Assembly: GCA_021738625.1 (NCBI GenBank)
Contig: JAIPBS010000015.1
Location: forward strand, 1 to 64,000
Reading direction: 5' to 3'
DNA length: 64,000 nt
Origin: Bacteroidales bacterium
GTDB taxonomy: Bacteria; Bacteroidota; Bacteroidia; Bacteroidales; JAIOZK01
The notes under the pieces were generated by a model, which was not told the DNA's origin, ran no database searches, and worked only from the letters and a program-made list of their open reading frames with translations. A program made the translations under genes and the position numbers. Positions within the stretch are counted from its first letter, which is position 1. The number at the start of each line of letters is the position of its first letter. Below are positions 21,857 to 55,416 of the stretch, in pieces.

Positions 21857-24800
21857 ATGAAAAAAGCCGCCCTTTATCTCACGTCAGTTTTAGCAATTCT
21901 GATAACGGTTAATACCGGATTCAGTCAGCACAATAAAACAGATTATTATTACTATGAAGGAAATGAGAAAATCATTCCTCAAGTCGACAACAGCAAACTG
22001 TATATCACTTTCATCTCAAAAGACGCCCTGGAAGCATTCAGGCAGCATACGTTCTTAATACCTGATATAAAACTTCCTGAAGATAAGCAGGGGTGGTTTA
22101 AATCGGATCATGCCTTAACAATTTTAACACCCGGGACTGAAAGGGCCGGGGCGCTGCTGGATTTCCTCAGAACGCATCCCTGGGTCGCATCTGCCTACCC
22201 CTATTTATACAGATACAACGAAGTCGCAGTAGTCGACAACTCAATCATTGTCAACATCCCTTTATCTGTAGAAGAAAGTAAACTGGAAAAAATTATAACC
22301 CGGCTGAAAGGAAGTATAACCGAAAAACTCAGTCTCGGCAATTCGGTTTCTTTCATTGTCAGTTTTCCCGCCGAGGTGAATATCTTTAAGGCGGCCAATA
22401 AAATTCACAAGAAAAGATATGTCAACTTCTCCCAACCCAACTTCATATTCCGGGGGTCTTCCGGCTATATTCCCAATGATACCTACTTTACCGATCAGTG
22501 GTTTCTGCAGCAATCGAGCGACAAGGATATCGATGCGGTTGAGGCCTGGGACATTACAACAGGCTCGTCTAACGTGGTGATTGCAGTAATAGACGGTACC
22601 GGTTATGAGCTCTCCCATGCTGACATGACCAACAAATATGTATCGCCTTATTGCGCAGTCAATAACAATTACAATCCCGATGCAACCCACCCTGATGAAA
22701 ACCATGGGACTCCCTGCGCAGGATTAATAGCTGCAGCTACCAATAACAATTATGGAGTTGCCGGTGTCGGGTATAACTGCAAAACCATGCCTATCAGGAT
22801 AGGTTATAATTTTGATGGCAACAACTGGTTAACCTCAAACCAGATCATCCAGCGGGCCGGTTCGCATATTGTCAATTCTACAGAGAATATCGCAGTGGTG
22901 AGCAATAGCATCCTGCTTGGTGTTTGGGCTAACAACATCACCGTTCGCACTGCTTTTGAAAGCATGCGCACCCAGCCCCGCAGCGGACTGGGCGCTGTTC
23001 TAATGGCCTCCACCGGGAACGAAAACACATTAAATTATGTACAATACCCTTGCTATTTTGCACATGTAGTAGGTGTTGGCGCCAGCGACCAGTACGATCT
23101 GCGTGCAAATTTCTCCAACTATGGGGATTCGTGCGACCTGGTTGCACCGGGCGTGAGCACACTCACGATAGATCGCACCGGTGCTGCAGGATACAACAAT
23201 GCAGGAGACTTTTATCAGTTTAACGGCACTTCGGGGGCCTGCCCTATTGCGGCCGGCGTAGCAGGTTTGATTGCCTCCGTCAACCCGAACATGACGGAGC
23301 GGGAAATGCGCCTGCAACTGTACAGTTCCTGTGAAAAAGTCGGTGGATACAGTTACAGTAACAACCCGGCTCACCCATTCGGAACCTGGAACCTTGAAAT
23401 GGGATATGGCCGCCTCAATGCCCATCAGGCAGTGCAAAGCGGTTCAATGCTGGAACCGCCCGACAACCTTTCCGCCTCGGTCAACGGAACCAATGTCTCG
23501 CTGAGCTGGACTGCACCGGGCGGGGGATCAACAACCGAAGAACTGATCTACGATAACAATATTTCCACCGGAGCATACAAGTATCCAGGCTACACCATGA
23601 GCACCCATATGTCGCCTGCTGAAAGCTGCCGGATCATCAGCCTGAAATTTTATACCACGGCCGATGCCGGCGACAATACTTTTAAAGCAAAGATATTTGA
23701 TTGGAGCGGCGGTCAGCCCACCAGCAACCTGCTTTTCGAAAGCAATGCTACCGCAGTGGACAACGACTGGCTCACCATCGACATCAGCAATGAGGATGTT
23801 TTCGTGAATGGTGATTTCCTGCTGGGCTTCGGTTCAATTAACGACTATACCTATCTGGGTTATGATGAAGACCTCAACAACGGACGCTCCTGGGATCATA
23901 ACGACAACAGCCAGAGCTGGAGCATGTGGAACGAAGCTTACCTGATCCGTGCCGTGGTGGAGTATTCGGACGGTAGCCGCGAGGAACTTGGAATTATTCC
24001 GGATATTGAAATCACCCCAAACTATTGCAGGCAAATAAAAACCGGAAACCCTGACCAAATTGCGGTTCAACCTATGGCAAATCAATCGGGCCGGTTTAAA
24101 GGCCTTCTGGGTTATAACCTATACAGGAACGGATCAAAGATCAACTCCAGCCTGATCACCGGCACCACCTATGCGGATAACGGCCTGTCCGCCGGCATCT
24201 ATAGCTATGTTGTTACGGCCGTTTACACTGAAGGTGAGTCGAATGGCGAAGGGCCGGTCCAGGTTGAGGTAACATCCGGCTCTCTGGCAGCCCCCACCAA
24301 CCTGGTGGCCGGCAGCAACGGATCCGATGTAAATTTGAACTGGATCGCCCCGGGCGGCGGCACCGAAGAATGGATTTCATATCATGACGGTACATTCGAG
24401 AATTCTTTTTCATCTACAAACGGGGGCGCCGGACTGGCTCAAATGATCACCCTGCCCGAATATCCTGCCATCGTTAAGCAGGTGAGGTTTCTAACCACAT
24501 CCTACAGCAACTTCAGTGGTCCTATGGAAGTTTATGTACTTTCATCGGATGGCGGCACCATTCTCTCAGGCCCGTTCAACACTCACGGACAGGAGGATCA
24601 ATGGATATATTGCGATATGGAAGATGTTGCCGTGAACGAACAGTCTTTTCTCGTGGCAACATACAATACCGAATCGGGAGGCCCGTATGTTGGGGTTGAC
24701 GACAGCGACTGGAACCAGAGTCTTTATTTCGGGAACCACATCGACGGATTTACCGAAATGAGCCAGATCGACGATTATTTTTACATGGGCAGCCATGAAG

Positions 24801-25291
24801 CCCTGGTGCAATACTCCAATGAAAAGGGCCAAACGGTGGAAACCTTTCTTTCGGGCAACACAGCATCGAGAGGTTTTGAGTATTACAAAATTTACAGGGA
24901 TGGCAACAGCATCGGAACAGCATCCGGTGAATCCTATAGCGATGTGCTCCCGAATTACGGTTCTTACACCTACACGGTTACAGCCTATTATTCCGAAGGG
25001 GAATCCACCCACTCCAACAGCGTGCAGGTAAACTGGGAAGTGGGTGTTGAGGAATACGGTACAGTCGATTTTGCAATATATCCCAATCCCGCCAATGACA
25101 ATGTTGTTGTTAAATGTGGTGAGAATATCCAAAAGCTTAGATTGGAAGATATCTCAGGCAGAAACATATTTACCAAAGAAATTTTTACCGGGAATTTTTT
25201 ATTGGATGTCAGTAGTTTTCCAGTGGGAGTTTATCATCTCATCGTGGAAACAGAAAATGGAAAAGGCGTTAAGAAGCTGATGGTTAGATAA
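21857..25291 (+). CDS. S8 family (subtilisin-like) serine peptidase with FN3-like domains and T9SS C-terminal sorting domain
   Basis: Catalytic triad motifs (VIDGTGYELSHAD; HGTPCAGLIAA; GTSGACPIAAGVAGL), repeated 'SASVNGTNVSLSWTAPGGG' FN3-like modules, and a C-terminal Por sorting domain (FAIYPNPANDNVVVKC...). Confidence 0.85.
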   Translation: MKKAALYLTSVLAILITVNTGFSQHNKTDYYYYEGNEKIIPQVDNSKLYITFISKDALEAFRQHTFLIPDIKLPEDKQGWFKSDHALTILTPGTERAGALLDFLRTHPWVASAYPYLYRYNEVAVVDNSIIVNIPLSVEESKLEKIITRLKGSITEKLSLGNSVSFIVSFPAEVNIFKAANKIHKKRYVNFSQPNFIFRGSSGYIPNDTYFTDQWFLQQSSDKDIDAVEAWDITTGSSNVVIAVIDGTGYELSHADMTNKYVSPYCAVNNNYNPDATHPDENHGTPCAGLIAAATNNNYGVAGVGYNCKTMPIRIGYNFDGNNWLTSNQIIQRAGSHIVNSTENIAVVSNSILLGVWANNITVRTAFESMRTQPRSGLGAVLMASTGNENTLNYVQYPCYFAHVVGVGASDQYDLRANFSNYGDSCDLVAPGVSTLTIDRTGAAGYNNAGDFYQFNGTSGACPIAAGVAGLIASVNPNMTEREMRLQLYSSCEKVGGYSYSNNPAHPFGTWNLEMGYGRLNAHQAVQSGSMLEPPDNLSASVNGTNVSLSWTAPGGGSTTEELIYDNNISTGAYKYPGYTMSTHMSPAESCRIISLKFYTTADAGDNTFKAKIFDWSGGQPTSNLLFESNATAVDNDWLTIDISNEDVFVNGDFLLGFGSINDYTYLGYDEDLNNGRSWDHNDNSQSWSMWNEAYLIRAVVEYSDGSREELGIIPDIEITPNYCRQIKTGNPDQIAVQPMANQSGRFKGLLGYNLYRNGSKINSSLITGTTYADNGLSAGIYSYVVTAVYTEGESNGEGPVQVEVTSGSLAAPTNLVAGSNGSDVNLNWIAPGGGTEEWISYHDGTFENSFSSTNGGAGLAQMITLPEYPAIVKQVRFLTTSYSNFSGPMEVYVLSSDGGTILSGPFNTHGQEDQWIYCDMEDVAVNEQSFLVATYNTESGGPYVGVDDSDWNQSLYFGNHIDGFTEMSQIDDYFYMGSHEALVQYSNEKGQTVETFLSGNTASRGFEYYKIYRDGNSIGTASGESYSDVLPNYGSYTYTVTAYYSEGESTHSNSVQVNWEVGVEEYGTVDFAIYPNPANDNVVVKCGENIQKLRLEDISGRNIFTKEIFTGNFLLDVSSFPVGVYHLIVETENGKGVKKLMVR

Positions 25292-25977: not shown

Positions 25978-26739
25978 ATGAAAAAAACATCCATATATTT
26001 ATATTTTGCCAGCGTGATCCTGACCGGCCTGATCATCCTGGCTGCCTGTGAGGAAAGTACCGACAACGACTTTTCACCCGGCAGTGAAGCCGGCATCGGC
26101 GGATCCCTCGCGCGTTTCACCATTGCAAACGATCACCTTTACACGGTTGATGATAACTCCATGCTTATCTTCAGTGTGGAAAATACAGAAAAACCTGTGC
26201 TGAAAAATGAAAAACAAATCGGGTTCGGGATCGAAACCATCTTTCCAAGAGGAGATCATTTGTTCCTGGGATCTCAAACCGGAATGTATATTTATGATAT
26301 AAACAACCCGGCAAATCCCTTTGAGGTTTCCTTTTTCAGTCACATCAAATCATGCGACCCGGTAGTGGCCGACCAGGATTATGCCTATGTTACGCTGAAC
26401 ACGGCAAACAACTGGTGCTGGCGCAACACCAACGAACTGCAGGTGGTCGATATTAGCGACCTTGAAAACCCTAGCCTTGCGGCAAGTAAAAATATGAATT
26501 CACCCCTGGGTTTATCCATCCATAACGACACCCTTTATGTTTGCGACAACGGCCTGAAAGTGCTGGATGTTTCGAATCCCGAAAACATCATTCAGCTTAT
26601 GCATTTCAGCGACATTCAGGCCAATGACGTGATTTATAACGACAACAAACTCTTCGTGATTGGCGACAACGGATTTTACCAATACAAAATCGAAGACGGG
26701 AACATTGAAAAGATCAGTGAAATATTAATCGGAAACTAA
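25978..26739 (+). CDS. LVIVD-repeat lipoprotein (about 5 repeats)
   Basis: Own signal peptide with lipobox (LIILAAC). Repeats DHLYTVDDNSMLIFSVEN / DHLFLGSQTGMYIYDINNPANP / DYAYVTL..LQVVDISDLENP / DTLYVCDNGLKVLDVSNPENI / NKLFVIGDNGFYQY. Confidence 0.6.
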   Translation: MKKTSIYLYFASVILTGLIILAACEESTDNDFSPGSEAGIGGSLARFTIANDHLYTVDDNSMLIFSVENTEKPVLKNEKQIGFGIETIFPRGDHLFLGSQTGMYIYDINNPANPFEVSFFSHIKSCDPVVADQDYAYVTLNTANNWCWRNTNELQVVDISDLENPSLAASKNMNSPLGLSIHNDTLYVCDNGLKVLDVSNPENIIQLMHFSDIQANDVIYNDNKLFVIGDNGFYQYKIEDGNIEKISEILIGN

Positions 26740-26748
26740 CACAAGGAA

Positions 26749-27396
26749 ATGAAAAAGTTGATTGCAATTATTTTGATCGCTATGGTCGCAGCATCAGGCG
26801 TATCTGCACAGGAACAGCAGCAAGAACAAAAAAAACAACCTGGTTTTATGGCGGGATTTGCCCCTTACTACACTTTTATCAACGGTTTAAGGCTGGATTT
26901 TGATTTTAAAATATCGGACGCCAAAAATCAGTGGCTGGTGGTTTCGCCACAGTTTTATTACAACGATGAAAGTTATAATTGGGATTATGAAGAAATGAGC
27001 GGAGTCGGCTTCGATTTGGGATACCGTTTATACCTGAGTGAGAGCAAGCGGCCGAAGGGGCCCTATTTCATGCCTGGGATCACGTTTCAGTATTATACCG
27101 TTGAAGATGAAATTTTTATCCCGGTGGAATATACAGAAAACGGCAACACCTATTTTGTCATGGAAGAAAGACTCGAAAATTCAAACCTTTTCAAAACCGG
27201 GCCCAACGTATTGCTTGGGTACCAGTTTCTGATCAACAATATCCTTTACCTGGATCTATACGGAGGGGTGGCTTTCCGAATGTCTTTCGACAATCGCGAT
27301 GGAGCATTGCAGGAAAACTTCAATTACGACTGGTTCGATTTAGGATACCAGGGCATTTTGCTGAACGGCGGCATGCGGGTCGGGGTAGCTTTCTGA
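26749..27396 (+). CDS. Putative outer-membrane beta-barrel protein
   Basis: Signal peptide (VSAQ), alternating aromatic/hydrophobic beta-strand pattern, and C-terminal 'GVAF'. Sits 9 nt downstream of the LVIVD genes. Confidence 0.45.
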   Translation: MKKLIAIILIAMVAASGVSAQEQQQEQKKQPGFMAGFAPYYTFINGLRLDFDFKISDAKNQWLVVSPQFYYNDESYNWDYEEMSGVGFDLGYRLYLSESKRPKGPYFMPGITFQYYTVEDEIFIPVEYTENGNTYFVMEERLENSNLFKTGPNVLLGYQFLINNILYLDLYGGVAFRMSFDNRDGALQENFNYDWFDLGYQGILLNGGMRVGVAF

Positions 27397-27424
27397 AGAA
27401 ATATTGCTAAAGTCCAGTAATTTT

Positions 27425-27515
27425 AGTCATCGGATGACTTGTTTGCAAATTGGATTTTAAACATTTCAACCTGGTGCTATTTATGAATAAGTCATCCGAT
27501 GACATGCAAAACAAG
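27425..27515. repeat. Twin 13-bp palindromes (GTCATCSGATGAC), each flanked by a ttgtttgcaaa/tgcaaaacaag inverted pair
   Basis: 'agtcatcggatgacttgtttgcaaa' lies at 27425-27449 and 'gtcatccgatgacatgcaaaacaag' at 27491-27515, between the convergent OM-protein gene and the encapsulin gene. Confidence 0.6.
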
Positions 27516-27593
27516 CTTTAAATAAGGAAAAGGAATACAGGCTGTCTCATAAGTTTGGGACAGCCTATTGTATTCATACCATGCTTTTTTATT

Positions 27594-28388
27594 TTACCCG
27601 ATATTGATCACAGCCGCCGGATCGAGCACCTGAAAGGTGAACGACTCGGTAAAGAATAACTGAACATTCCGGCTGTCGTGCGATTCATATCCAATTGAAA
27701 GATCCTGTCCGAGCGTAAGGCGGAAATCCCCTCCGCGTTCAGTCACCAATAAGGCACCGTTCAGGTTGGGCGCCAGGATGATCTTTCCGTCAAGCAGATT
27801 TTCCAGTTGAAGCCTAAGCGGATAATCTCCAACATAGCTCGATACTTTTTCCCATTTATCGATATCGAGCACAAGTGAATATGGCCCTTCAACCGAAGCG
27901 CTCTTAAACATACTTATGGCCCTTGTGACAGCATGAAGGATTTTGGACGGATCCTCCGGGAATTCAACCTTTTCGTGTTCCGAACGGCTTTTAAGTCCGG
28001 TTATACCTGCATTTTTCAAACCCTCGTAAATCACATTCTCCTCGAAACGGGCCATTCGTTTGGCGGCTTTTTCGAGTGATTCCAGGTCGATGTCTTCCGC
28101 GCCTCGGTCGACATTGTCGAGTTCCCACAGATCAAGCTCAAATTTTGAACGGGTTTCAAGCAGCGGCAAAACTTTATACAATCCGTATTCAAGCCCTTCC
28201 TCATCCTGTGCCTTTGGAATCTCCAGTCGACCCGCAGAAACGGAACCCAGCTCCAGCCCATGCGGGCCGTCAACATCCACAAACTTCCTGGCGGATAAAT
28301 CCGTTTTAAAGACATCCTCTGCCTGCTCATTTATTTCCTCCCATGCTTTATCTGAAATGGGAGCCATCTTCTTTTTTAAAATATCCAT
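27594..28388 (-). CDS. Family 1 encapsulin nanocompartment shell protein (HK97 fold, linocin-M18-like)
   Basis: 264 aa, collinear with T. maritima encapsulin (MAPISDKAWEEIN..FKTDLSARKFVDVDGPHG...LDLWELDN...GPYSLVLDIDKW...VTERGGDFRLTLGQDLSIGYES...FTESFTFQVLDPAAV). Confidence 0.9.
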   Translation of the reverse strand: MDILKKKMAPISDKAWEEINEQAEDVFKTDLSARKFVDVDGPHGLELGSVSAGRLEIPKAQDEEGLEYGLYKVLPLLETRSKFELDLWELDNVDRGAEDIDLESLEKAAKRMARFEENVIYEGLKNAGITGLKSRSEHEKVEFPEDPSKILHAVTRAISMFKSASVEGPYSLVLDIDKWEKVSSYVGDYPLRLQLENLLDGKIILAPNLNGALLVTERGGDFRLTLGQDLSIGYESHDSRNVQLFFTESFTFQVLDPAAVINIG

Positions 28389-28397
28389 AACAATACC

Positions 28398-28745
28398 TTA
28401 TTTATTAATTTTCCCAATTCCTAAATCTGATTGATCTTCTTCAGCTTCTTCCTCTTCTCCTGCTTCCAGATTGGTAATATCTCCTTCGGTGAAAAGATAG
28501 GTCCGAAGTTCATCGTCCCAACCGTCCATATTCCGGCGGAGCCACTCAATGGTCATACAGGCATGTTCGATTTCTTCATCACGATTGTGTGCCAGTATGT
28601 TTTTCAGATGCTCATCCTTTGTCACATCCACACGCTGATTATACCAATCCACCGCTTCGATCTCTTCTTTCAAACTCAGCAGTGCACGTGTAATATTGCG
28701 TGCTTTTTCACTTAATTCTTCAGTCGGTTCATGATATTGACTCAT
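28398..28745 (-). CDS. Encapsulated ferritin-like protein (EncFtn) cargo with C-terminal targeting peptide
   Basis: EIEAVDWYNQRVDVTKDEHLKNILAHNRDEEIEHACMTIEWLRRN...LRTYLFTEG is near-identical in pattern to R. rubrum EncFtn, including the Glu/His iron ligands. A Gly/acidic linker leads to the C-terminal SDLGIGKINK targeting peptide. Gene sits 9 nt upstream of the shell gene. Confidence 0.9.
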   Translation of the reverse strand: MSQYHEPTEELSEKARNITRALLSLKEEIEAVDWYNQRVDVTKDEHLKNILAHNRDEEIEHACMTIEWLRRNMDGWDDELRTYLFTEGDITNLEAGEEEEAEEDQSDLGIGKINK

Positions 28746-28918
28746 AACAAATAATTTTAATTTGGTGAAAAGAGTAAAAAAATCCTGCCATCAACCGATA
28801 CTGTGGAAAAACCATTTAAGAAAGCTGATGTCCAGTAGTTTAAAACATAATCAATCCAGTACCTCCACATTATGTAGAAATTTTACAACACAATGATTAA
28901 CATTATGGGTATATATAT

Positions 28919-29725
28919 CTACGTATGATTGATTTTTCTTGCCACGCTTAGCAGATGCTTTGAGTTGGCCACCATTTCCTCGTCTTCACAATACCTGACA
29001 ATAAAGTTGAGCCATTTCTTTTTAAGTTCCGGGTTTAGGTTATGATACAAGTCAAAGCGCTCGCCGAATACACCTTCCGCGCCAGCCAGGTGCAGGGGCT
29101 TCAAACCGGCTTCCGCCATCAATGGATTGATCTCGGAGGGATGCACAAAATAAGCATTTGTAAAAGCTTCGGTACCTTCAACAAAATGGTTGTCGGCACC
29201 GGTCTGCCATAGTTTTTCAGCTCCGTCAGGATAATTGATCCCTTCGGGATTGTTTTTCAAACCATAAACCAGGGCTGCGCTGCGGGTCATAAAAGCAGAA
29301 AAAACAAAGCCGCCCGGATTAAGCGAGGCTGCGGCCCTTTTCAAAAGCATCAGCCGTTTTTCCCTGCTGATCATATGATAAAGCGGCCCCATCAGCAATA
29401 CCGCATCCCAATTGCGTTTTTCCCAGCCTTTGCTTTCGAGGGCTTCCGAACGTTCGATGAAGAGAATATTGGGATTTCCGCCAAGGCGCTCTTTAACGAT
29501 GCGGATATTTTCATCCGCAAGATCATTCAGTCCAAGCTTATAGCCATCACGGATAAGTGCTTCGGCATAGTGCCCGGTTCCGCAACTCGCATCGAATATT
29601 TCTTCCCCCGGGGAAATATATTGGTTGATAAAGTGCCTTGTAACAGGCATTTCAAAAACATGGTAGTCGAGCCGTTTGTCTTCTTCGGCTCTGTGCCGGT
29701 TGTAGTATTTTCTTACTTTTTCCAT
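28919..29725 (-). CDS. Class I SAM-dependent methyltransferase
   Basis: Motif I DASCGTGHYAEAL and a downstream acidic motif. Start trimmed to MEKVRKYY so it does not overlap the CsbD-like gene. Confidence 0.7.
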   Translation of the reverse strand: MEKVRKYYNRHRAEEDKRLDYHVFEMPVTRHFINQYISPGEEIFDASCGTGHYAEALIRDGYKLGLNDLADENIRIVKERLGGNPNILFIERSEALESKGWEKRNWDAVLLMGPLYHMISREKRLMLLKRAAASLNPGGFVFSAFMTRSAALVYGLKNNPEGINYPDGAEKLWQTGADNHFVEGTEAFTNAYFVHPSEINPLMAEAGLKPLHLAGAEGVFGERFDLYHNLNPELKKKWLNFIVRYCEDEEMVANSKHLLSVARKINHT

Positions 29726-29789
29726 AAAAAATTCGGCCCCGGCCAGTAAATGACCAGAGCCGGGTGTATATGAAGATTGACAGGGTGTT

Positions 29790-29987
29790 TTATAAGGTCT
29801 TGATGGTTTCGATGATATCCTTTCGCTTTTGTCCGCCCAGCCGGCTTTGAATACGCCCGACAAAAATTTCCTCATCTTCGGTGTACTCCAGGTCCCGCTC
29901 AGTGAGATGGGGATATTTATCCTTTAGGCGGCGTTTAACATCATTCCAGTTGCTTTTAAAATCTCTCAAATTGATTCTCTCTTCCAT
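29790..29987 (-). CDS. CsbD-like general stress protein
   Basis: 65 aa: WNDVKRRLKDKYPHLTERDLEYTEDEEIFVGRIQSRLGGQKRKDIIETI matches the CsbD/YjbJ pattern. Confidence 0.55.
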   Translation of the reverse strand: MEERINLRDFKSNWNDVKRRLKDKYPHLTERDLEYTEDEEIFVGRIQSRLGGQKRKDIIETIKTL

Positions 29988-30002
29988 TGTTTCCTCCTTT
30001 TA

Positions 30003-30317
30003 TTAAGCAGTGATTTTACTATGCGACTTATCAATTCTAACGGATAAGATACCTGAATTCAGGCTAGCTCTTATCGAATGCGGATCGGCGTTGGCAGGAA
30101 GCTTAAATTTTCTTTCATAAAGCTTTTCTTTTCTGTTGGGAACCATGATCTGCCTGATCACTGATATTTTCAACATATCATGGGTAACATTAACACTTAC
30201 ATCTTCCTGCTGAAAATCAGGCATAGAGATGTTGATAAAGTATTCTTTCAGGTTCTCACATATATCAACAGGCCTTTCACTATATGGGTTGTTGATGGAT
30301 ATCATTTTCTTTTTCAT
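30003..30317 (-). CDS. Hsp20/alpha-crystallin-like small protein
   Basis: YFINISMPDFQQEDVSVNVTHDMLKISV...ERKFKLPANADPHSIRASLNSGILSVRIDK shows the alpha-crystallin-domain beta-sandwich pattern. Confidence 0.45.
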   Translation of the reverse strand: MKKKMISINNPYSERPVDICENLKEYFINISMPDFQQEDVSVNVTHDMLKISVIRQIMVPNRKEKLYERKFKLPANADPHSIRASLNSGILSVRIDKSHSKITA

Positions 30318-30489
30318 TTTTGTGTTTGTTTGTTATATGAGTGGAATAAAAAAATGTGCCACAAATCCGACACTTTGCAGAACACACATCTGTCAAGCAT
30401 TCAAGAAGGAAGACCTATTTATTTGCCTTTCATTTTTAATAATAAAATCAATGAAAAAAAATCAGCATGTGAAAGAAAATCTACATCCT

Positions 30490-31848
30490 TTAAGAAGTTT
30501 TATTCAGTGCGATACCGAATTGCTTCAATTTATTATAAAGTGTTTTCCTGTCGATATTCAAAAGTTTGGCGGCTTTGGATTTATTGTAGTCCGCTTTTTC
30601 CAGGGTGTTCAGTATAACTTTCTTTTCGGCGGATACGGCTGCTTCTTTCAGGTTTCCACTCTTATCTCCGTCAATTGAAGTATATTCATAAGCGGAATCA
30701 ATACCAAGCATATCCTCAGGCAAGTCTTCCACAAGAACTTCATCCGATTTGGCCAGCAACACAGCACGTTTAATCATATTGCGCAATTCCCTGAAATTTC
30801 CCAGCCATCTATGATTCATAAAAATGGATTTAACTTCCTTGCTAAACCCCTGCACATCTTTTTCCAGTTCTTCGTTGGCTTCTTCCCTGAATTTTTCGGC
30901 AAAGATCAGGATATCCTTACTGCGTTCCCTCAGAGGCGGCACATTGATCTTAAATTCATTGATGCGGTGATAAAGGTCATCTCTGAATTTATTCTCCTTC
31001 ACCATATTGAGCAGGGGCTCGTTGGAAGCAGCTATAATGCGCACATCAATTTCAATATTCTTGTTCTCGCCAACGCGGTTGATCACCCTTTCCTGCAAAA
31101 CCCGCAACAGTTTCACCTGCACTTCGTAGGGCAAATTCCCAATCTCGTCCAGGAAAAGGGTTCCGCTCTCGGCTGCCTGAAATGAACCTTCTTTGTCTTT
31201 GATGGCCCCGGTAAATGAGCCCCGCACATGGCCAAACAGTTCACTGTTGGCCAACTCATGCGGAATGGCGCCACAGTCGACCGCCACAAAAGGTTTATCT
31301 TTTCTTTTGCTATTGTAATGGATGGCACGTGATATATATTCCTTACCCGTACCGGTTTCCCCTTCTATCAAAACGGTCATGTCGGTTGGGGCGACAACTT
31401 TGGCCAGTTCCAACACCTTCTTCATCTGCGGGCTTTCGCCAATGATGAATTCTTTTTCAAAGCGCTCTTTGGAGCGGGAGCTTCTTCTTTTTCGCAAGGC
31501 GCTTTTCACAATGGTGGTGATCTCTTCGGGCCGGATGGGTTTGGTCACATAATCAAAAGCGCCGGCCTTGATCAAACGCACGGCCTGTTGTACATCAGCA
31601 TAAGCAGTGATGATAATAACAGGCAATTGCGGTGACAGCTTTTTGATGCCTTGTAAAATAGTGAGTCCGTCATTGTCGGGTAAGCGGTAGTCGCAAAGCA
31701 CCAGGTCAAAAGCTTTATCATTAATTTTATTCAGGCCCTTGCTTCCTGTGAATGCTGTATCCGTGTTGTATCCCTGACCGCTCAGATACTCATCAAGCAA
31801 TGAGCAAATATAGGTATCGTCGTCAATGATCAAAATGTTTTTTTTCAT
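30490..31848 (-). CDS. Sigma-54-dependent Fis-family response regulator (NtrC-like)
   Basis: REC (ILIIDDD...LCDYRLPDNDG), AAA+ sigma-54 activator core (GETGTGKE, ESELFGH-like NSELFGHVRGSFTGA), and a C-terminal Fis-type helix-turn-helix. Confidence 0.9.
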   Translation of the reverse strand: MKKNILIIDDDTYICSLLDEYLSGQGYNTDTAFTGSKGLNKINDKAFDLVLCDYRLPDNDGLTILQGIKKLSPQLPVIIITAYADVQQAVRLIKAGAFDYVTKPIRPEEITTIVKSALRKRRSSRSKERFEKEFIIGESPQMKKVLELAKVVAPTDMTVLIEGETGTGKEYISRAIHYNSKRKDKPFVAVDCGAIPHELANSELFGHVRGSFTGAIKDKEGSFQAAESGTLFLDEIGNLPYEVQVKLLRVLQERVINRVGENKNIEIDVRIIAASNEPLLNMVKENKFRDDLYHRINEFKINVPPLRERSKDILIFAEKFREEANEELEKDVQGFSKEVKSIFMNHRWLGNFRELRNMIKRAVLLAKSDEVLVEDLPEDMLGIDSAYEYTSIDGDKSGNLKEAAVSAEKKVILNTLEKADYNKSKAAKLLNIDRKTLYNKLKQFGIALNKTS

Positions 31849-34193
31849 GCGATATGCTCCTTTAAGGCTTTGTTAACTTTGGTAATGATCTCGATCACAT
31901 CCAGGGTTTTGGCTTTTACCAGGTCATAATCGGGTTTATCGGATTTGAGATTGGTTTCAATATAATCGAGTTTGGGGATCAGGCTATTCACTTTCAAATG
32001 CTTGCTGGAGGGAAGCAACTTATGGGCTACCCCGGCAAGTTCATCCCATCTCTCTTTTTCAAGGTAATAAGACATCATTGAGCGGGCGCTGGAAGAATTT
32101 TTACAAAATGTATTTACCATTTTCTCCATGAACTCTTTCTTTCCCTTACCAAATTGTTTCAATTCACCCAGATCAAATAGCGCACCATTTTTTTCAACCT
32201 TGATGTTTTCCTTTTCTTCATCCTTTTTCGGAGGCAGTACTCTGCTGTATCCCAGCAAGCGAATAATCTTTTTGAACAGCTCCTCCTCTCTGAAGGGTTT
32301 AGTAAGATAATCATCCATGCCGGCTTCCATAAAATGTTCCAGATCCCGTTTCAGCACATTGGCAGTAAGGGCAAGTATATGCGGTTGCCTTCCGCCAGGC
32401 TGGTATCGTGCTCTCAACCTTTTTGCTACCTCCATACCACTGATGCCGGGCATATGTATGTCAAGCAAGATAACATCATAAAAATCATCCTCAAGTTTAT
32501 CCAACGCATCCCAGCCGTCAACCGCCATTTCAAATTCCACCTTCCATTCTTCAAGTATGCTTTCGCCAAGCAACCTGACCATATCATCATCATCAACAAG
32601 CAAAATTTTCTTACCTCTTAACTTTTCAGCCTCTATCATCCCGTCAGAGGGAGTTTGCTCAGGAATAGCGTCTGTCTTTTTAAAAGGGATGATAATGCTG
32701 AAAGTGCTGCCGTATCCAACCTCACTTTCAACAGAAAGTGTTCCGTCTTGCAATTCGACCAGTGTCTTGCTGATGGTCAGCCCGAGGCCCGAACCGCTAT
32801 ATTTTTTCGTGATGCCTGTGTCGTCCTGGTAGTATTCCTCAAAAATTGCCTTCTGCTTGTTCGCCGGTATACCGATACCGGTATCCGCCACATCAATCCT
32901 CACCAGACATCCCTCGTCGCTCTCCTCGAGTATATCGGCCAGAACCTGCACCTTTCCCTTTTCCGTGAATTTGATGGCATTGTTTACCAGGTTGATGATC
33001 ACCTGCCTCAACTGACCCTCATCACCCAATAGCGGTTTATTCAGGCGGGTTGAGCTATAAAAGCTCAAATTAAGTTGCTTTTTCTCAGCCTTGATCCGCA
33101 TAATATTATCAACCTCATTAAAAATGTCGTTCAGTTTGAAGGGCTTGAGCTCGAACTGAATTTCGCCTGACTCGACTTGCGAAAGGGTAAGGGTTTCGTT
33201 AACAATGGACAGCAAATGTTTGGACGACAACTGAATGGCGTCCAGGTAACTTTGCTGCTTGTTGTCGAGCCTGGTTTTGGCCAGCTGATCGCCAAAACCA
33301 ACCACCGAACTTAGGGGGGTTCTGATCTCGTGGCTCATATTGGCAAGAAATTCACTCTTGGCCATATTGGCCTTTTCGGCCGACAGTTTTGCCTTTTTGA
33401 GCACATCTTCGTTGATCTTATCCTGTGTTATGTTCTCAAATACCAACATAACATTTTGTACAGGCTCTTTCTTCGACAGGGGTACGGCCTGAACATAATA
33501 TGTATTGCCTTTGTATTCCATTTCATTGGTGATTGTACTTCCCCTAAACGACAACTCAATGATGGTATTGATGCTTTTCAATTGCTCCCCTTCAAAGAGC
33601 ACTGAAGGATCGCTTCCTTCCACCTGTTTTCTGTCAATTTTCAAAAGTCTCAGTTCGGGTCCTTCAGCAATCTCAATGAATGTTTTTTCATTTAATAAAA
33701 GTATAAACACATTGGGAATACTGTCGATCATTTTCCGGTAGAGGTATTCGCTTTGGAGAATAAAATCCTGGGAAAACATCTGATGCGTGATGTCACGCAC
33801 GGTTTCAACGACATAAGCAACGCCTCCGTCTTCGTCCGATACCGGTATCAGGGTTCTTTCAATAGTAAGCTTACCCTTTTCGGTTTTGAATTCATAAACT
33901 GAATTCATACAGTCTTTTGATTGCAAGCAATTTTTCGTATCGGATAAAACTGTTTCCAATGAATTTTCAGGGTATAAATCTTTAATAAAAAGATTGTTGC
34001 CTGGCTTAGGCGAACTTTTTCCAAAAAGTTTGTGGTAATGATCCGTGTGATCCAACACCTCAAGATTGGAATCAATAACGGCTATACCTTCCGGCATTAT
34101 GTTGTATAATTTCTTGGACTTGCCAAACTGCTCCAGAAATTTATCAGGCCCGCCGAATTGCTTTTGGATGTAATCCATATTAATTTTTCTCAT
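31845..34193 (-). CDS. Hybrid sensor histidine kinase/response regulator with PAS and Hpt domains
   Basis: PAS domains, HisKA (ANMSHEIRTPLSSV), HATPase_c (GTGIGIP...GSGLGLTIS), REC (ILLVDDDD...LLDIHMPGISG), and a C-terminal Hpt (AHKLLPSSKHL). Its stop overlaps the NtrC-like gene start by 4 nt. Confidence 0.9.
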   Translation of the reverse strand: MRKINMDYIQKQFGGPDKFLEQFGKSKKLYNIMPEGIAVIDSNLEVLDHTDHYHKLFGKSSPKPGNNLFIKDLYPENSLETVLSDTKNCLQSKDCMNSVYEFKTEKGKLTIERTLIPVSDEDGGVAYVVETVRDITHQMFSQDFILQSEYLYRKMIDSIPNVFILLLNEKTFIEIAEGPELRLLKIDRKQVEGSDPSVLFEGEQLKSINTIIELSFRGSTITNEMEYKGNTYYVQAVPLSKKEPVQNVMLVFENITQDKINEDVLKKAKLSAEKANMAKSEFLANMSHEIRTPLSSVVGFGDQLAKTRLDNKQQSYLDAIQLSSKHLLSIVNETLTLSQVESGEIQFELKPFKLNDIFNEVDNIMRIKAEKKQLNLSFYSSTRLNKPLLGDEGQLRQVIINLVNNAIKFTEKGKVQVLADILEESDEGCLVRIDVADTGIGIPANKQKAIFEEYYQDDTGITKKYSGSGLGLTISKTLVELQDGTLSVESEVGYGSTFSIIIPFKKTDAIPEQTPSDGMIEAEKLRGKKILLVDDDDMVRLLGESILEEWKVEFEMAVDGWDALDKLEDDFYDVILLDIHMPGISGMEVAKRLRARYQPGGRQPHILALTANVLKRDLEHFMEAGMDDYLTKPFREEELFKKIIRLLGYSRVLPPKKDEEKENIKVEKNGALFDLGELKQFGKGKKEFMEKMVNTFCKNSSSARSMMSYYLEKERWDELAGVAHKLLPSSKHLKVNSLIPKLDYIETNLKSDKPDYDLVKAKTLDVIEIITKVNKALKEHIA

Positions 34194-34445
34194 AGCAAAT
34201 CATTATCAAGAACAACATGCGTAATAAACTCCACATTTTGCTCACTTCCGGGTTTTAAAGTTAAACATTTTTACCAACAGTTTTCCACACCGCTTATAAA
34301 AATGCCAATTGATAAGCAAAAACAACTCCATTTGATGATAAAACAAATATAAATAACACATTGTTATCAGAGAATCCACCAAAAGAGTGGCATGGGATTG
34401 GCAGGACTGAAAGAAAAACAATTATTCAAAAGTTAGGATTAAGCA

Positions 34446-35300
34446 ATGAAGAGGATTGTAACACCAACTGATTTCAGTAAGCTAAGCGACTACGGACTGC
34501 TGATGGCCCTGCAAATTGCAAAAAAGCTCAATGCGGAGATTTTTCTTCTGAATATCATCTACCCCCCACAGGGAACCACCTTTTCTGCCTATGGCGATGT
34601 GAATAAACTTCCCCGGAACGAACAGGACCGCTTTACCGTTGAGCTTGTCAGGAAAAACCTGCAGCGAATGGAGGCACTCCAAGAAAAATATAAATCTTAC
34701 AGTATTAAGATGGAGCCAGGCATCGAGTTCGGCAATCTGAAAAACGGCATCGATCAGTTTATCGTGAACAATGATATTGATTTGGTGGTTATGGGTGCAA
34801 ACAGCAGCCAGAACTTTGTTGAACATTTCGTTGGCAACAACACCGAAAAAGTGATCCGGGTTTCAAAATGCCCGGTGATCACCACAAAAAGGGAGATCAA
34901 AAGTTTCGAACCGAAAAACCTTGTGATCCCACTTGATGTTGACAATGAATTATTTGAAGGCCTGGAGAAGATCGTAGAATTTGGAGAAGAGGTGAATGGC
35001 AAAATGCATCTGTTGCACATATTGAATTCAAGCGGTTTAACTACGGAAGTATCTCTGCAACGGCTTGAAAAGGTTGCAAAAGATTACCGCATAAAAGACT
35101 ACACCCTGAACACCATTGACGAAAAAAACGCCGTTCAGGGCGTAAACGGTTTTGCAAAACGGATCAAAGCGGATATGATCGCCATGATCACCCATGGCCG
35201 AAAAGGGCTTAAGAATTTGATTTTCGGAAGTATGGCTGAAGAACTCATTAAAGAAAATGAGATCCCCATGTTGATCATAAATAAAGAAGAAATTATTTAA
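34446..35300 (+). CDS. Tandem universal stress protein (UspA family)
   Basis: Two USP domains (VVMGANSSQN...; MIAMITHGRKGLKNLIFGSMAEEL). Confidence 0.8.
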   Translation: MKRIVTPTDFSKLSDYGLLMALQIAKKLNAEIFLLNIIYPPQGTTFSAYGDVNKLPRNEQDRFTVELVRKNLQRMEALQEKYKSYSIKMEPGIEFGNLKNGIDQFIVNNDIDLVVMGANSSQNFVEHFVGNNTEKVIRVSKCPVITTKREIKSFEPKNLVIPLDVDNELFEGLEKIVEFGEEVNGKMHLLHILNSSGLTTEVSLQRLEKVAKDYRIKDYTLNTIDEKNAVQGVNGFAKRIKADMIAMITHGRKGLKNLIFGSMAEELIKENEIPMLIINKEEII

Positions 35301-35738
35301 TTATACCGGCTCCGACAAGTTCGCCAGTTGGGGAATATGCAATTGTATCCAGGTATAGAACGGCAATATCTCATCCTGCAACTGATCAGGAAGTTTTTCC
35401 TTTATGATCTCATGCAGGGCGTTTAAAACAGCCGGCCAGTAAGCCAGTTGAAAACCATGTGAGCGATAGGCCCTGAATACCCATAACAAAGTTTCAACAA
35501 AAACCTGTGGATCGAATGCCTTAAATACGGATTCCATGAAACGCACTTGGTTGGCGTGGTTGTCGCGCATCATGGCAAGGTTTTCTTTGCCGATCATTTT
35601 TTTCAGGTCGTCGCGTTGCTCCAACCAGCGGTTTAGTTCCGACAACAGTTCATGGCTGTGCGCTGAAAATGTCCGGGCCGCCTCCTCAGAAGGTTGCCTG
35701 AGCTTAGCTGCATCTTTTATCAATTCTTTTTTTGTCAT
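35301..35738 (-). CDS. Hypothetical all-alpha protein (possible sensor or accessory protein)
   Basis: 145 aa, helical, no signal peptide, at the tail of the kinase array. I could not assign a family. Confidence 0.35.
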   Translation of the reverse strand: MTKKELIKDAAKLRQPSEEAARTFSAHSHELLSELNRWLEQRDDLKKMIGKENLAMMRDNHANQVRFMESVFKAFDPQVFVETLLWVFRAYRSHGFQLAYWPAVLNALHEIIKEKLPDQLQDEILPFYTWIQLHIPQLANLSEPV

Positions 35739-35864
35739 AAGTTCAAAATATTATACCGATTCGGAATAAGTTTGCAATGATTGACCTCCTGCTTCTATCG
35801 GTATAACTGAATCTAGCAGAAAAAAGCTTTGCATTTTTAATAAGATTCAGTATACATGATCATT

Positions 35865-36977
35865 TCATTTTCGTCCAAGAGCCGGCAACAGGAATATAAA
35901 CTCGGAACCTGCTCCCGCTTTGCTTTCAACGCGAATACTGCCTGCATGGGCATCAATAATCTTTTTCACAATAGCCAGACCCAGGCCGGTGCTTTTCTCA
36001 TCGGCTGTGGGCCGTACCGAAGTTTTGGAAAAGGTTTTGAACAACAGGGGCAATTCCTTTTCGGGTATTCCCGGCCCCTGGTCCTTAACAGAAACCCGGG
36101 CATATCCCCCCTTTTCCTTAAGCTCAACCTCTACATTTGTCCCTGCTTCGGAAAACTTAACGGCATTGGATAGCAGGTTATTCATCACCTGCTCGATTTT
36201 ACCCATATCCGCATTTACCGGCAAACTATCCAAAGCCGTCTTTATATCGATCCGAATATCCTTCTTATCTCCAAAAGGTTTGTTCAGGCGAATTGACTTG
36301 CTTACAAGTTGAAGCAAGTCAAAAACTTCCATATCGAGCTTCACCTTGCCCGATTCAATGCGCGCAAAATCCAGCAGCTCATTCAACAGATCCAACATAA
36401 ACTGGCTTTGCGATTCAAGGGTTTTCAGGATATCCATTTCTTCATCATTCAATCTGTCGCGCAATTCATCCTGCAAATAATCGGAATATGACATAACCAG
36501 GCCGATTGGGTTGCGCAGATCGTGCGCGGCAACGCCCAGAAACTCATTCTTCTGCTCATTCATCTGCTGAAGTTCCGTGTTTTTCTTGTACAACTCACGG
36601 CTAAGATTATTCAGCTCATTGTTGAGCGCGAGTAATTCCTGTCTAAGTTTGACATTTTCTTTTTCACTTTGTTCGCCCAAAACCAAGGTAAGCTCATCAT
36701 CTGTTTTATAAAAACTGAAATAAAATGTTTCGGGAAGATTTTCGGGCGTTTTCACATTCAGCAAAAGGGGGCCATTGCTCTCCAACAGCTTATCCAGGCT
36801 CAATTCACCGGTAAAATCAAGAATAAGGTTCCGGATATTTTTACCCACAATCTCAGCACCCAATATCCGTTCGGCAAAAACATTGGATTTTTTAACAAAG
36901 CCCCTTTCATCCATAAGCATCATGATGATACTTGCATGCTCATTGACATATTTATTCAGGATAGCCGACTTCTTCAT
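35865..36977 (-). CDS. Sensor histidine kinase (PAS - coiled coil - HisKA - HATPase)
   Basis: HisKA H-box (GVAAHDLRNPIG), with N, G1 and G2 boxes (NLLSNAVKFS, DQGPGIP, GLGLAIVKKI). Confidence 0.85.
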   Translation of the reverse strand: MKKSAILNKYVNEHASIIMMLMDERGFVKKSNVFAERILGAEIVGKNIRNLILDFTGELSLDKLLESNGPLLLNVKTPENLPETFYFSFYKTDDELTLVLGEQSEKENVKLRQELLALNNELNNLSRELYKKNTELQQMNEQKNEFLGVAAHDLRNPIGLVMSYSDYLQDELRDRLNDEEMDILKTLESQSQFMLDLLNELLDFARIESGKVKLDMEVFDLLQLVSKSIRLNKPFGDKKDIRIDIKTALDSLPVNADMGKIEQVMNNLLSNAVKFSEAGTNVEVELKEKGGYARVSVKDQGPGIPEKELPLLFKTFSKTSVRPTADEKSTGLGLAIVKKIIDAHAGSIRVESKAGAGSEFIFLLPALGRK

Positions 36978-36983
36978 TGCGCA

Positions 36984-37622
36984 TCAATTGTAATTTCCAA
37001 TAAATGACTCGAGTTCCTCAAGGCTCAGGATCAATTTAACCTCATCCATATTTTTAATTAGATTTTGACCTCCCCATCTGAATGCCTGACCTCCGACAAT
37101 TATGGATTGGGACGGAAAGTTTTCCCTGATCAGATCGACCATTTCCTTCATCACGGAAAAATTAAAAGAAACGCTAACGGACAATGCGATGATATCGGGC
37201 TTCCTTTCACTGATCATCGACAACACCTCGCTTTGTGGGGTATTGGCCCCAAGGAAATACCCATCCCATCCGTTCATCTCAAAGATATCCGCAACCATGC
37301 GCGCCCCCACCTGATGATACTCATTGGCCAGGCATGTAACAACCGCTCTTCTCCCTTTTCGCTCGGTACTGAACATGTATGGGTAAACCATACTCATTTG
37401 CCGCTCCACCAGTGAAGTTGCCAGATGTTCTGTGGCTACGCTTAATTTGTTGTGCTCCCATAGTTCCCCCACCTGATAAAGTGCGCGCTGAAAAAGATCT
37501 TTATAGATTTGCCTTATTCCAACCTCCTGATCAATCAAATGGTTAACCGTTGCAACAACTGCTTGCCGGTCGCCATCTAGCAGGGCCTCGAAATATTTAT
37601 TGTAAAGCTGATCCGTTATCAT
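36984..37622 (-). CDS. Stand-alone CarH-type cobalamin (B12)-binding photoreceptor-like domain protein
   Basis: An N-terminal four-helix bundle carrying Wx9EH (ELWEHNKLSVATEHLA) plus a Rossmann B12-binding domain with ExHxxG (ANEYHQVGARMVADIF..GWD). No DNA-binding domain. The start overlaps the stop of the hybrid kinase at 37619..39559. Confidence 0.7.
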   Translation of the reverse strand: MITDQLYNKYFEALLDGDRQAVVATVNHLIDQEVGIRQIYKDLFQRALYQVGELWEHNKLSVATEHLATSLVERQMSMVYPYMFSTERKGRRAVVTCLANEYHQVGARMVADIFEMNGWDGYFLGANTPQSEVLSMISERKPDIIALSVSVSFNFSVMKEMVDLIRENFPSQSIIVGGQAFRWGGQNLIKNMDEVKLILSLEELESFIGNYN

Positions 37623-39559: not shown

Positions 39560-39561
39560 AA

Positions 39562-40017
39562 CTATTCAGATTTGTAATCCGGTATCTCATTCATCAACAG
39601 CCAGTAAAGGCCGATCTCAGCGACGGAATCAACAAATTTATTGTAATCAACCGGTTTTACGATATAACTATTCACACCCAGTTCGTAACTTTTCACCATA
39701 TCACGCTCTTCACGCGAGGTGGTTAACACAACTACCGGAATGTTTCTGGTTCGCTCGTTGCTTTTCACTTTTTCAAGCACTTCCAGCCCGGTAACTTTCG
39801 GAAGCTTTAAATCCAGCAGAATCAATTTGGGTAATTCGTTGTTGTTTCTATCTTTAAAGGTGTTTCTACAAAAAATGTAATCAAGCGCTTGTTCTCCGTC
39901 GCGAACCACATGCATGCGCACACCGAGCTTGTGCTTTTTCAGTGCGCGTTCTGTAAGTTCCACATCGTTAGGATTGTCCTCAACAAGCAATATTTCTGCT
40001 TTTTCGCGTATTTCCAT
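39562..40017 (-). CDS. Single-domain response regulator of the phytochrome-associated (Rcp1-like) type
   Basis: ILLVEDNPNDVELTERAL...LLDLKLPKVTGLEVLEKVK...PVVVLTTSREERDMV...NSYIVKPVDYNKFVDSV closely resembles stand-alone REC partners of photoreceptor kinases. Sits 2 nt upstream of the hybrid kinase. Confidence 0.8.
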   Translation of the reverse strand: MEIREKAEILLVEDNPNDVELTERALKKHKLGVRMHVVRDGEQALDYIFCRNTFKDRNNNELPKLILLDLKLPKVTGLEVLEKVKSNERTRNIPVVVLTTSREERDMVKSYELGVNSYIVKPVDYNKFVDSVAEIGLYWLLMNEIPDYKSE

Positions 40018-40061
40018 AGGACATTTTTTTTATAAATATAACATAATATTTTCAGCCTGAA

Positions 40062-41843: not shown

Positions 41844-41870
41844 TTGTTCTGAAAAACCTCTCTTTATTAT

Positions 41871-43394: not shown

Positions 43395-43541
43395 AATGTA
43401 TTAATCATTGTTTTGTTAACATCTCATTTATACTGAATCTTATTGAAAAAGCAAAGCATTTTCTGTTAGATTCAGTTATACCGATGGAAGCATAAGGTCA
43501 ATCATTGAAAACCTGTCCCGAATCGGTATAATTTAGGCAGA

Positions 43542-47441: not shown

Positions 47442-47606
47442 AACGATGGTTCTTTATAATAATGCCAACCATGCCAACCATGTAAAATCAACAGGACATG
47501 GGCGCATGGGAAGATTTACTTTTACATCAAAGATAAAGAATTAAATCAGTTATGTAAATAGGTAAATTACCTAATTATAAGTTGTTGAACCAAAAGAACA
47601 ATTGGA

Positions 47607-48335: not shown

Positions 48336-48347
48336 AATGTTTTCCTT

Positions 48348-55108: not shown

Positions 55109-55121
55109 CTTCCTGAAAAAG

Positions 55122-55205
55122 TGCCCAAGAAAGGACTCGAACCTTCACGAGCATTCGCTCACTACACCCTGAATGTAGCGCGTCTACCAATTCCGCCACT
55201 TGGGC
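55122..55205 (-). tRNA. tRNA-Leu (anticodon CAG)
   Basis: Reverse complement folds as a cloverleaf: acceptor GCCCAAG/CTTGGGC, D-arm GCGG..AATTGGTAG, anticodon stem CTACA/TGTAG with loop TTCAGGG, a long variable arm, T-loop TTCGAGT, discriminator A. Confidence 0.85.
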
Positions 55206-55332
55206 AATTTACTTGTTAAGAACGTTATATTATACTGCAAAGTTAGTAAAAATCGAACTCTAAAGATTTTCTATTTTTCGGAGCTTGCACTCTTTCATGC
55301 TCCGTCGTATCATTACAATGAACAATTTTGTG

Positions 55333-55416
55333 TGCCCAGGACAAGAATCGAACTTGCACGTCCTAACGGACACATGGCCCTCAACCATGCGCGTCTACCA
55401 GTTCCGCCACCTGGGC
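55333..55416 (-). tRNA. tRNA-Leu (anticodon GAG)
   Basis: Reverse complement: acceptor GCCCAGG/CCTGGGC, anticodon stem CATGG/CCATG with loop TTGAGGG, a long variable arm, T-loop TTCGATT. Confidence 0.85.

Follow-up and report, generated by a model that had tools for sequence, protein, structure and literature searches.

What does a minus-strand gene pair in an uncultured member of the Bacteroidales encode, and what might switch it on? The pair lies in a 64,000-nucleotide (nt) stretch of DNA, hereafter the window (positions 1 to 64,000 of contig JAIPBS010000015.1, assembly GCA_021738625.1), and consists of two adjacent open reading frames (ORFs), here called encFtn and enc. With high confidence, the answer to the first question is a classical (family 1) encapsulin iron-storage nanocompartment, with a mechanism drawn from close solved homologues. 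As for the second, comparison of related sequences suggests that a neighboring kinase and sigma-54 activator pair switches on the operon together with stress genes, and this is the only new point. The features on which the first answer depends are as follows.

28398-28745, minus strand: encFtn, a 115-aa ATG ORF ending ...EAGEEEEAEEDQSDLGIGKINK
28401-28430, minus strand: codons of the targeting peptide SDLGIGKINK, with the acidic linker LEAGEEEEAEEDQ before it
28389-28397, minus strand: spacer of 9 nt at the operon junction, with encFtn upstream
27594-28388, minus strand: enc, a 264-aa ATG ORF
27539-27566, no strand assigned: an 11-bp hairpin, 28 nt past the enc stop codon

Both ORFs, their coordinates, and the 9-nt gap, as read from the ORF list and the raw sequence, agree with a preliminary description of this DNA, which had left the strand of the genes unstated. 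The hairpin is probably a terminator common to the convergent genes, and its minus-strand U-tail is only moderate.

The encapsulin shell and its predicted ferritin cargo

Judged from their sequences, the family assignments of both proteins are far beyond chance. The preliminary description had proposed a hidden Markov model (HMM) search, and in this search the Enc protein matched PF04454 (Linocin_M18) with 288 bits (cut-off 24.3); it also matched the NCBIfam equivalog NF041155 (encap_f1, “family 1 encapsulin nanocompartment shell protein”) with 281 bits (cut-off 100). Its nearest solved counterpart is the encapsulin of Thermotoga maritima (PDB 3DKT, 7KQ5, 7MU1), with which it aligns collinearly from residue 1 to residue 261 in each (E 1e-76 and 47.5% identity to 3dkt) and which is also the best structural match. 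An AlphaFold2 model built on 25 homologues, with a predicted local distance difference test (pLDDT) score of 74.7, superposes on 27 T=1 family-1 shells with template modeling (TM) scores of 0.78-0.86, and its structural matches include 7kq5, 3dkt, 9bkx, and 7oe2 at probability 1.00, indicating the HK97 fold. The earlier account of a family-1, HK97-fold shell collinear with that of T. maritima is well supported by these matches. The two systems further resemble each other in having the cargo gene directly upstream and a C-terminal ...DLGI(G/R)K... tail on the cargo. They differ in that T. maritima is a thermophile and the host here a mesophilic-looking Bacteroidales metagenome-assembled genome (MAG), and in that the context here is a sigma-54 two-component pair, Hsp20, and a universal stress protein (USP).

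Our best inference for the assembly, from the sequence and the model, is a T=1 60-mer, because the TM scores to T=1 shells are as given above and the T=3 and T=4 shells of Myxococcus xanthus, Quasibacillus thermotolerans, and Bacillus methanolicus are just 17-23% identical to Enc. We consider a larger cage for Enc, of the T=3 or T=4 kind made by M. xanthus, Pyrococcus furiosus, or Q. thermotolerans, very improbable. Sequence alone does not fix the T number with certainty, and EncA variants have been engineered that switch it (as PDB titles state), but the 264-aa protein can be aligned over its full length with the T=1 shells of T. maritima, Haliangium ochraceum, mycobacteria, and Rhodospirillum rubrum at E-values of 1e-50 to 1e-76, whereas those against T=3/T=4 shells are 1e-4 or worse.

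The T. maritima shell holds a flavin sandwiched by Arg79 and Trp87 (PMC8086168), the latter being W90 in the numbering of LaFrance et al., who reported that the flavin-binding Trp is kept in only 35% of ferritin-loaded encapsulins, nearly all of them from anaerobes (PMC8610991). These residues align with R80 and W88 of Enc, each conserved to 90% or more among 25 Bacteroidales-type shells. Since the Arg/Trp pair is retained, the Enc shell probably carries flavin, a type of shell described chiefly in anaerobes.

The upstream gene encodes the predicted cargo. The EncFtn protein passed both EncFtn models, Pfam PF22277 (EncFtn-like; 142 bits, cut-off 27) and TIGR04535 of NCBIfam (“encapsulin-associated ferritin-like protein”; 155 bits, cut-off 125), which completes the proposed HMM search, while its score of 69.7 bits against EncB_fam is under the cut-off of 90, and it is therefore not of the EncB type. 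Its closest solved structures are the encapsulated ferritins of R. rubrum, H. ochraceum, and P. furiosus (E 1e-33 to 6e-29), with R. rubrum EncFtn (33bf, 5da5) at the top (E 1e-33 to 4e-32). The offset in the R. rubrum alignment is constant at 4 residues, and Glu32, Glu62, His65, and Tyr39 therefore correspond to E28, E58, H61, and Y35 here. In R. rubrum, E32, E62, H65, and Y39 make up the ferroxidase center, E31, E34, and W38 the entry site, and H57, E61, and E64 the outer (exit) site (He et al. 2016, PMC5012862). All of these are conserved in the present protein: E31, E32, E34, W38, and Y39 become E27, E28, E30, W34, and Y35, while H57, E61, E62, E64, and H65 become H53, E57, E58, E60, and H61. 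The ferroxidase ligands are thus accompanied by the secondary metal sites E27/E30 (R. rubrum Glu31/Glu34) and H53/E57/E60 (R. rubrum His57/Glu61/Glu64), and across the 120 closest homologues the ten metal-site positions are invariant save for a single E-to-Q change at E30. The structure match and these ten positions confirm the identification of the small protein as an EncFtn with Glu/His ferroxidase ligands, and homology suggests that it would assemble as a decamer with ferroxidase activity. Relative to the R. rubrum system (PDB 5DA5, 33BF, 9RY4), which supplies the best EncFtn match, the present protein has a shorter linker with a more acidic composition (115 aa in full length compared with 140 aa), and Enc is closer to the T. 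maritima shell than to that of R. rubrum (E 1e-50).

The C-terminus of the EncFtn protein reads ...TNLEAGEEEEAEEDQSDLGIGKINK, and a (D/S)LGIGK(I/L)K tail following an acidic or glycine-rich linker is found in nearly all of the 120 homologues. In the shells of T. maritima and H. ochraceum, a GxLGIxxL localization motif is seen bound (PMC8791618), and the tail SDLGIGKI(NK) fits it in that the core LGIxx(L/I) is kept; the flexible linker and targeting peptide that had been read from the sequence alone are consistent with both observations. The H. ochraceum Enc:EncFtn system (PDB 7ODW, 7OE2), which has a T=1 shell, a decameric EncFtn, and GxLGIxxL docking on the inner face, is similar in both shell (E 3e-56) and cargo (E 2e-29), and differs in the tail, where the first Gly is Ser and the last Leu is Ile in SDLGIGKI. 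No other real ORF in the window ends in a targeting-peptide-like tail; the sole other frame bearing one, considered as a second cargo, is a 59-codon stop-to-stop frame of no standing, and we rejected it.

Taken with the solved homologues, these proteins would work as follows. EncFtn would form a decamer with di-iron ferroxidase centers at its dimer interfaces (E28, E58, H61, and Y35), and its flexible acidic linker would offer the C-terminal SDLGIGKI to an inward-facing pocket of the shell protein. Sixty shell subunits would build a T=1 cage with the HK97 fold, about 24 nm in size, and Fe2+ entering through pores would be oxidized by the cargo and laid down as ferric mineral within the shell. 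It weighs against this picture that assembly, T number, cargo loading, ferroxidase activity, and flavin binding are all taken over from homologues.

The GenBank label for Enc is “bacteriocin family protein”, and the HK97 fold is common to encapsulins and phage capsids, so we also considered that Enc might be a secreted bacteriocin or a remnant prophage HK97 capsid next to a ferritin-like gene by coincidence. This reading can be regarded as effectively refuted already. The bacteriocin label is a recognized misannotation of PF04454 (PMC8346489), and Enc passes the family-1 encapsulin equivalog model. Within 8 kb on either side of enc we found a protease, an outer-membrane protein (OMP)-like protein, a methyltransferase, Hsp20, the two-component pair, and USP, and no phage structural genes. 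In addition, the gene upstream carries the matching targeting peptide, and in our comparison set of 80 related species from GTDB genomes, the shell gene has EncFtn directly 5' of it in 74, while in three of the other six the upstream sequence is simply missing.

Encapsulins with Flp/EncFtn cargo have already been catalogued in 23 bacterial phyla. The exact Enc and EncFtn proteins are present in GenBank from four Bacteroidales MAGs under adjacent accessions (MCF8234738.1 and MCF8234739.1, among others), with the generic names “bacteriocin family protein” and “ferritin-like domain-containing protein”, and the same contig is present in three sequencing runs. Shell homologues with 55-70% identity number in the hundreds and EncFtn homologues in the thousands, and many of them are already named as encapsulin components. 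Given these records and the conserved gene pair, this is an ordinary family-1 EncFtn encapsulin operon, with nothing new in the operon itself. One related protein has a different organization: MFO7615400.1, from another Bacteroidales MAG, is 382 aa long and has the EncFtn domain fused in frame to a shell part that is 64% identical to Enc, with the LGIGK tail replaced by ...ELGDNEPGEIKSIKINT and then MDLLKK.... Andreas and Giessen described all Flp-fusion encapsulins as archaeal. MFO7615400.1, which occurs on a single contig, is either a bacterial fusion or the product of a lost stop codon or an assembly error.

Candidate sigma-54-type control of the operon

The preliminary description had seen a hint of stress-regulated expression in the surrounding genes, and this has turned out stronger than foreseen, since the kinase/activator/USP neighborhood and an upstream element are conserved across diverged species, the neighborhood in seven species and the element close to encFtn in six of these. 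The elements and genes involved are listed here.

28774-28790, minus strand: TGGCAGGATTTTTTTAC, a sigma-54-type element whose -24 box is followed by a degenerate -12 region rich in T, 45 nt 5' of the encFtn ATG
28863-28879, minus strand: imperfect palindrome TTCTACA-TAA-TGTGGAG, about 90 nt upstream of the encFtn -24 box
30003-30317, minus strand: Hsp20 / alpha-crystallin small heat-shock protein (PF00011, 54.8 bits)
30345-30361, minus strand: TGGCACATTTTTTTATT, a sigma-54-type element, 44 nt 5' of the hsp20 ATG
30490-31848, minus strand: NtrC-type response regulator / sigma-54 enhancer-binding protein (REC, Sigma54_activat at 237 bits, AAA_lid_14, HTH_8)
31845-34193, minus strand: hybrid sensor histidine kinase (PAS, HisKA, HATPase_c, REC), overlapping the activator gene by 4 nt
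34388-34402, plus strand: TGGCATGGGATTGGC, a sigma-54 promoter-like element with GG-N10-GC, upstream of USP
34446-35300, plus strand: tandem universal stress protein (PF00582 in two stretches, 110 bits), its gene divergent from that of the kinase

From the sequences we give an even or marginally better chance to control of the encFtn operon by sigma-54 and this activator. A sigma-54-type promoter 45 nt before encFtn would belong to the operon itself, and the adjacent PAS hybrid kinase and NtrC-type activator would switch on the operon, hsp20-csbD, and the divergent USP gene as a small stress regulon. The presence of a sigma-54 activator/hybrid kinase pair near the operon, as described previously, is borne out by the domains of the two proteins (REC, Sigma54_activat, and HTH_8; PAS, HisKA, HATPase_c, and REC). 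The activator has the features known from NtrC-type regulators of sigma-54 (RpoN) regulons, with an intact AAA+ domain, Walker A (GETGTGKE) and Walker B motifs, and a GAFTGA-like loop (GSFTGA) from residue 210. As in such regulons, TGGCA -24 boxes stand at a fixed distance from three neighboring genes, and candidate upstream sites lie 90-165 nt away.

Within the 173-nt intergenic region 5' of encFtn, the motif TGGCAGG(A/G)TTTTTT is the sole invariant island when the window is compared with the related loci L084, L085, L088, L004, L005, and L007, the surroundings having diverged, and in the aligned loci it sits 39-47 nt before the encFtn ATG. A further locus, L023, has this element about 700 nt upstream of encFtn, before an extra gene. 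The hsp20 element is kept as TGGCAY followed by a T-rich stretch in L084, L085, L088, L004, and L023, at 44-51 nt from the ATG in four of these five species and at 70 nt in L023. The USP element, TGGCAY-N5-TTNG(C/T), is conserved in all eight loci examined; its canonical GG-N10-GC form is found in the window, L084, L023, and L007 (reading TGGCATATGCTTTGCA), while the other relatives have GT at -12. A second USP operon in five relatives is preceded by TTTGGCATATTCTTTT, which differs at one or two positions in L085 and L005.

We built a position weight matrix (PWM) from 24 sites of these four promoter classes, in all of which TGGCA and the TT five bases on are invariant, although TGGCA and one T of the pair were already set by the pattern used to search for sites. 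The matrix has exactly three matches in the window, namely the encFtn, hsp20, and USP sites, with the encFtn site scoring highest. Among 80 loci, the element occurs 30-80 nt 5' of encFtn in every species with an adjacent activator orthologue, save L023, and in only about 5 of about 60 species without one, where the chance expectation is about 0.015 matches per 50-nt slot.

Several points weigh against sigma-54 control. The -12 half of the encFtn and hsp20 elements in the window is without GC (TTTTTA), and in most relatives it is TTTC rather than TTGC, unlike the -12 of known sigma-54 regulons. A search with the canonical pattern (TGGCAC-N5-TTGC, 2 mismatches) gave 39 matches against 60 expected and is therefore uninformative alone; only the comparative PWM discriminated. 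Neither the activator nor the element is found in about 55 of the 80 related species, and the control circuit would therefore be specific to one clade. No rpoN gene was seen within the 64-kb window, the remaining genome lying outside it. Finally, the candidate activator-binding word discussed below was first spotted by eye, and each of its k-mers alone is borderline against shuffled sequences.

These points leave room for a less favored but still quite possible reading, in which a genuine EncFtn encapsulin is not controlled by sigma-54: TGGCAGG-TTTTTT would be the site of another factor or part of a housekeeping-sigma promoter, and the kinase and activator would regulate USP only, perhaps with hsp20. 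It would account for the canonical GG-N10-GC spacing being confined to the USP element, for the missing -12 GC, and for the lack of enrichment of the canonical pattern. Yet TGGCA with TT exactly 5 nt on, invariant in 24 of 24 sites and in four promoter classes, is sigma-54 geometry, and the element is present wherever an activator orthologue adjoins and rare elsewhere. Moreover, encFtn lies directly 3' of the activator gene in L005 and L007, and the -12 C is retained in most relatives (TTTC). The fuller form of sigma-54 control seems to us evenly poised between right and wrong: that in one Bacteroidales clade the encFtn operon is a direct target of a dedicated kinase/activator pair, which also drives hsp20-csbD, USP, and the USP-baeRF-oxidoreductase-dodecin operon of relatives, via TGGCA-N6-TT(T/G)C promoters with an unusually T-rich -12.

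The palindrome TTCTACA-TAA-TGTGGAG is tentatively a candidate activator-binding (enhancer) site. When k-mers were counted without bias over the 190 nt preceding 23 boxes, TTCTACA/TTCCACA (TTCYACA) ranked as the top word family. Its distances are conserved and class-specific: the second USP operon has it at about -145, most species have it at -151 to -166 before USP, and the majority of hsp20 and encFtn sites have it at about -89 to -122. Because the single k-mers are borderline against shuffles, the enhancer reading is suggestive at best.

Other readings of the region upstream of encFtn were rejected. The TGGCAGG-T-run is not a terminator, since 5 of 6 upstream sequences fold no better than shuffles, and no consistent 5' arm is present. 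A Fur-box-like sequence, CATAATGTTAATCATTGTG (about 28887-28905, minus strand, about 150 nt upstream of encFtn), agrees at about 15 of 19 positions with the Escherichia coli Fur-box consensus, but it is unconserved in the near-identical L084, and we therefore treat it as chance in AT-rich DNA. No match to known RNA families or riboswitches was found at 26500-35800 at E<=0.1. Chaperone genes dependent on sigma-54 have been reported in Bacteroidota (PMC12316311), which speaks for the proposed control. No match for encapsulin together with sigma-54 was found in the literature searched, and a broader search gave no paper with “encapsulin” among its 12 best matches.

Neighboring genes in the window and in relatives

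Two further genes separate the encFtn operon from hsp20.

28919-29725, minus strand: Class I S-adenosylmethionine (SAM)-dependent methyltransferase, 268 aa (Pfam Methyltransf_25/23/11), variable and non-core
29790-29987, minus strand: CsbD-like small protein, 65 aa (sub-threshold NCBIfam PRK10428, E 7e-6)

The order on the minus strand is thus hybrid PAS kinase, NtrC-type sigma-54 activator, Hsp20, CsbD-like protein, methyltransferase, EncFtn, and Enc. The methyltransferase gene, which went unmentioned in the preliminary description, is found in L084 and L085 and is absent from L088, L004, L005, and L007. Its longest ORF (318 aa, 28919-29875, minus strand) overlaps the CsbD-like gene, and its start is probably the ATG at 29725, directly past a 12-bp hairpin with a T-run at 29762-29734, 3' of the CsbD-like gene, which looks like an hsp20-csbD terminator. 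With regard to the stress genes that had been named around the operon, Hsp20 and USP hold up on their PF00011 and PF00582 matches, while “CsbD” is weakly supported in the window, where the protein has only the sub-threshold PRK10428 hit and no Pfam match at E<=0.01. The gene is conserved in L004, L085, L055, and L066, and the L085 orthologues match PF05532 (CsbD).

The order USP, divergent kinase, activator, and then EncFtn and Enc recurs in L085, L088, L004, L023, L005, and L007, whose shells are 59-70% and activators 65-68% identical to those of the window. The intervening genes differ: Hsp20 adjoins encFtn in L088, and the activator does so in L005 and L007. A census of the neighbors of encFtn operons in 68-76 species found the immediate neighbors to be heterogeneous. 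Those upstream include superoxide dismutase (SOD; 4), sigma-54 activator (3), nitroreductase (3), rubrerythrin (2), and AhpC (2); on the other side, an MscS channel adjoins enc 8 times. We therefore rejected a general stress-gene neighborhood for EncFtn operons, and the context described here is specific to one clade.

Some arrangements in relatives deserve mention in their own right. SOD is the commonest immediate upstream neighbor (4 of 68), an independent link to oxidative stress, and in L047, L055, and L066 (Tangfeifania / Prolixibacteraceae) an Fe/Mn SOD gene ends immediately 5' of encFtn. The second USP operon, convergent to enc and preceded by the kind of element given above, is present in L085 (9345-15096) and L088 (9461-14593), and also in L004, L023, and L005, with the order USP, baeRF-family protein, (MarR/HTH), pyridine-nucleotide disulphide oxidoreductase, an unknown protein, dodecin, and DUF302, while a GNAT acetyltransferase gene lies 3' of enc in L085, L088, L004, and L007; neither this operon nor the GNAT gene is found next to enc in the window. 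Dodecin stores flavin, and its occurrence in this operon is curious beside the flavin-site residues of the shell.

Elsewhere in the window, the palindrome GTCATC(G/C)GATGAC occurs in two copies (27426-27438 and 27491-27503), 65 nt apart and within 25-nt inverted-repeat arms that are 84% complementary, in the convergent intergenic region between a 215-aa OMP-like gene and enc; there are no further copies in the window, and 0.03 are expected by chance. A 145-aa protein encoded at 35301-35738 on the minus strand, abutting the USP stop codon, has a marginal Globin match (23.2 bits, cut-off 22) and may be a haem-based sensor. Its gene heads a long run of sensor kinases and response regulators (35865-51953) and is conserved in L084 only. 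The window also encodes a 1144-aa S8 subtilisin-like protease (21857-25291, plus strand) with a Por/type IX secretion system (T9SS) C-terminal sorting domain, consistent with a Bacteroidota origin, and two tRNA-Leu genes (55121-55205 and 55332-55416).

Implications for encapsulated ferritins

By its flavin-site residues, the Enc shell falls into the minority of ferritin-loaded encapsulins that keep the flavin-binding Trp, a subset derived almost entirely from anaerobes. Little is understood of when bacteria make encapsulated ferritins and for what reason, and a conserved kinase and activator with recognizable promoter elements provide a testable handle on the inducing signal in Bacteroidales. 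If the proposed control is true, encapsulated ferritins would gain their first defined signal-transduction circuit, and the compartment would belong to a stress regulon, possibly tied to redox conditions or oxygen, instead of being governed by classical iron regulation.

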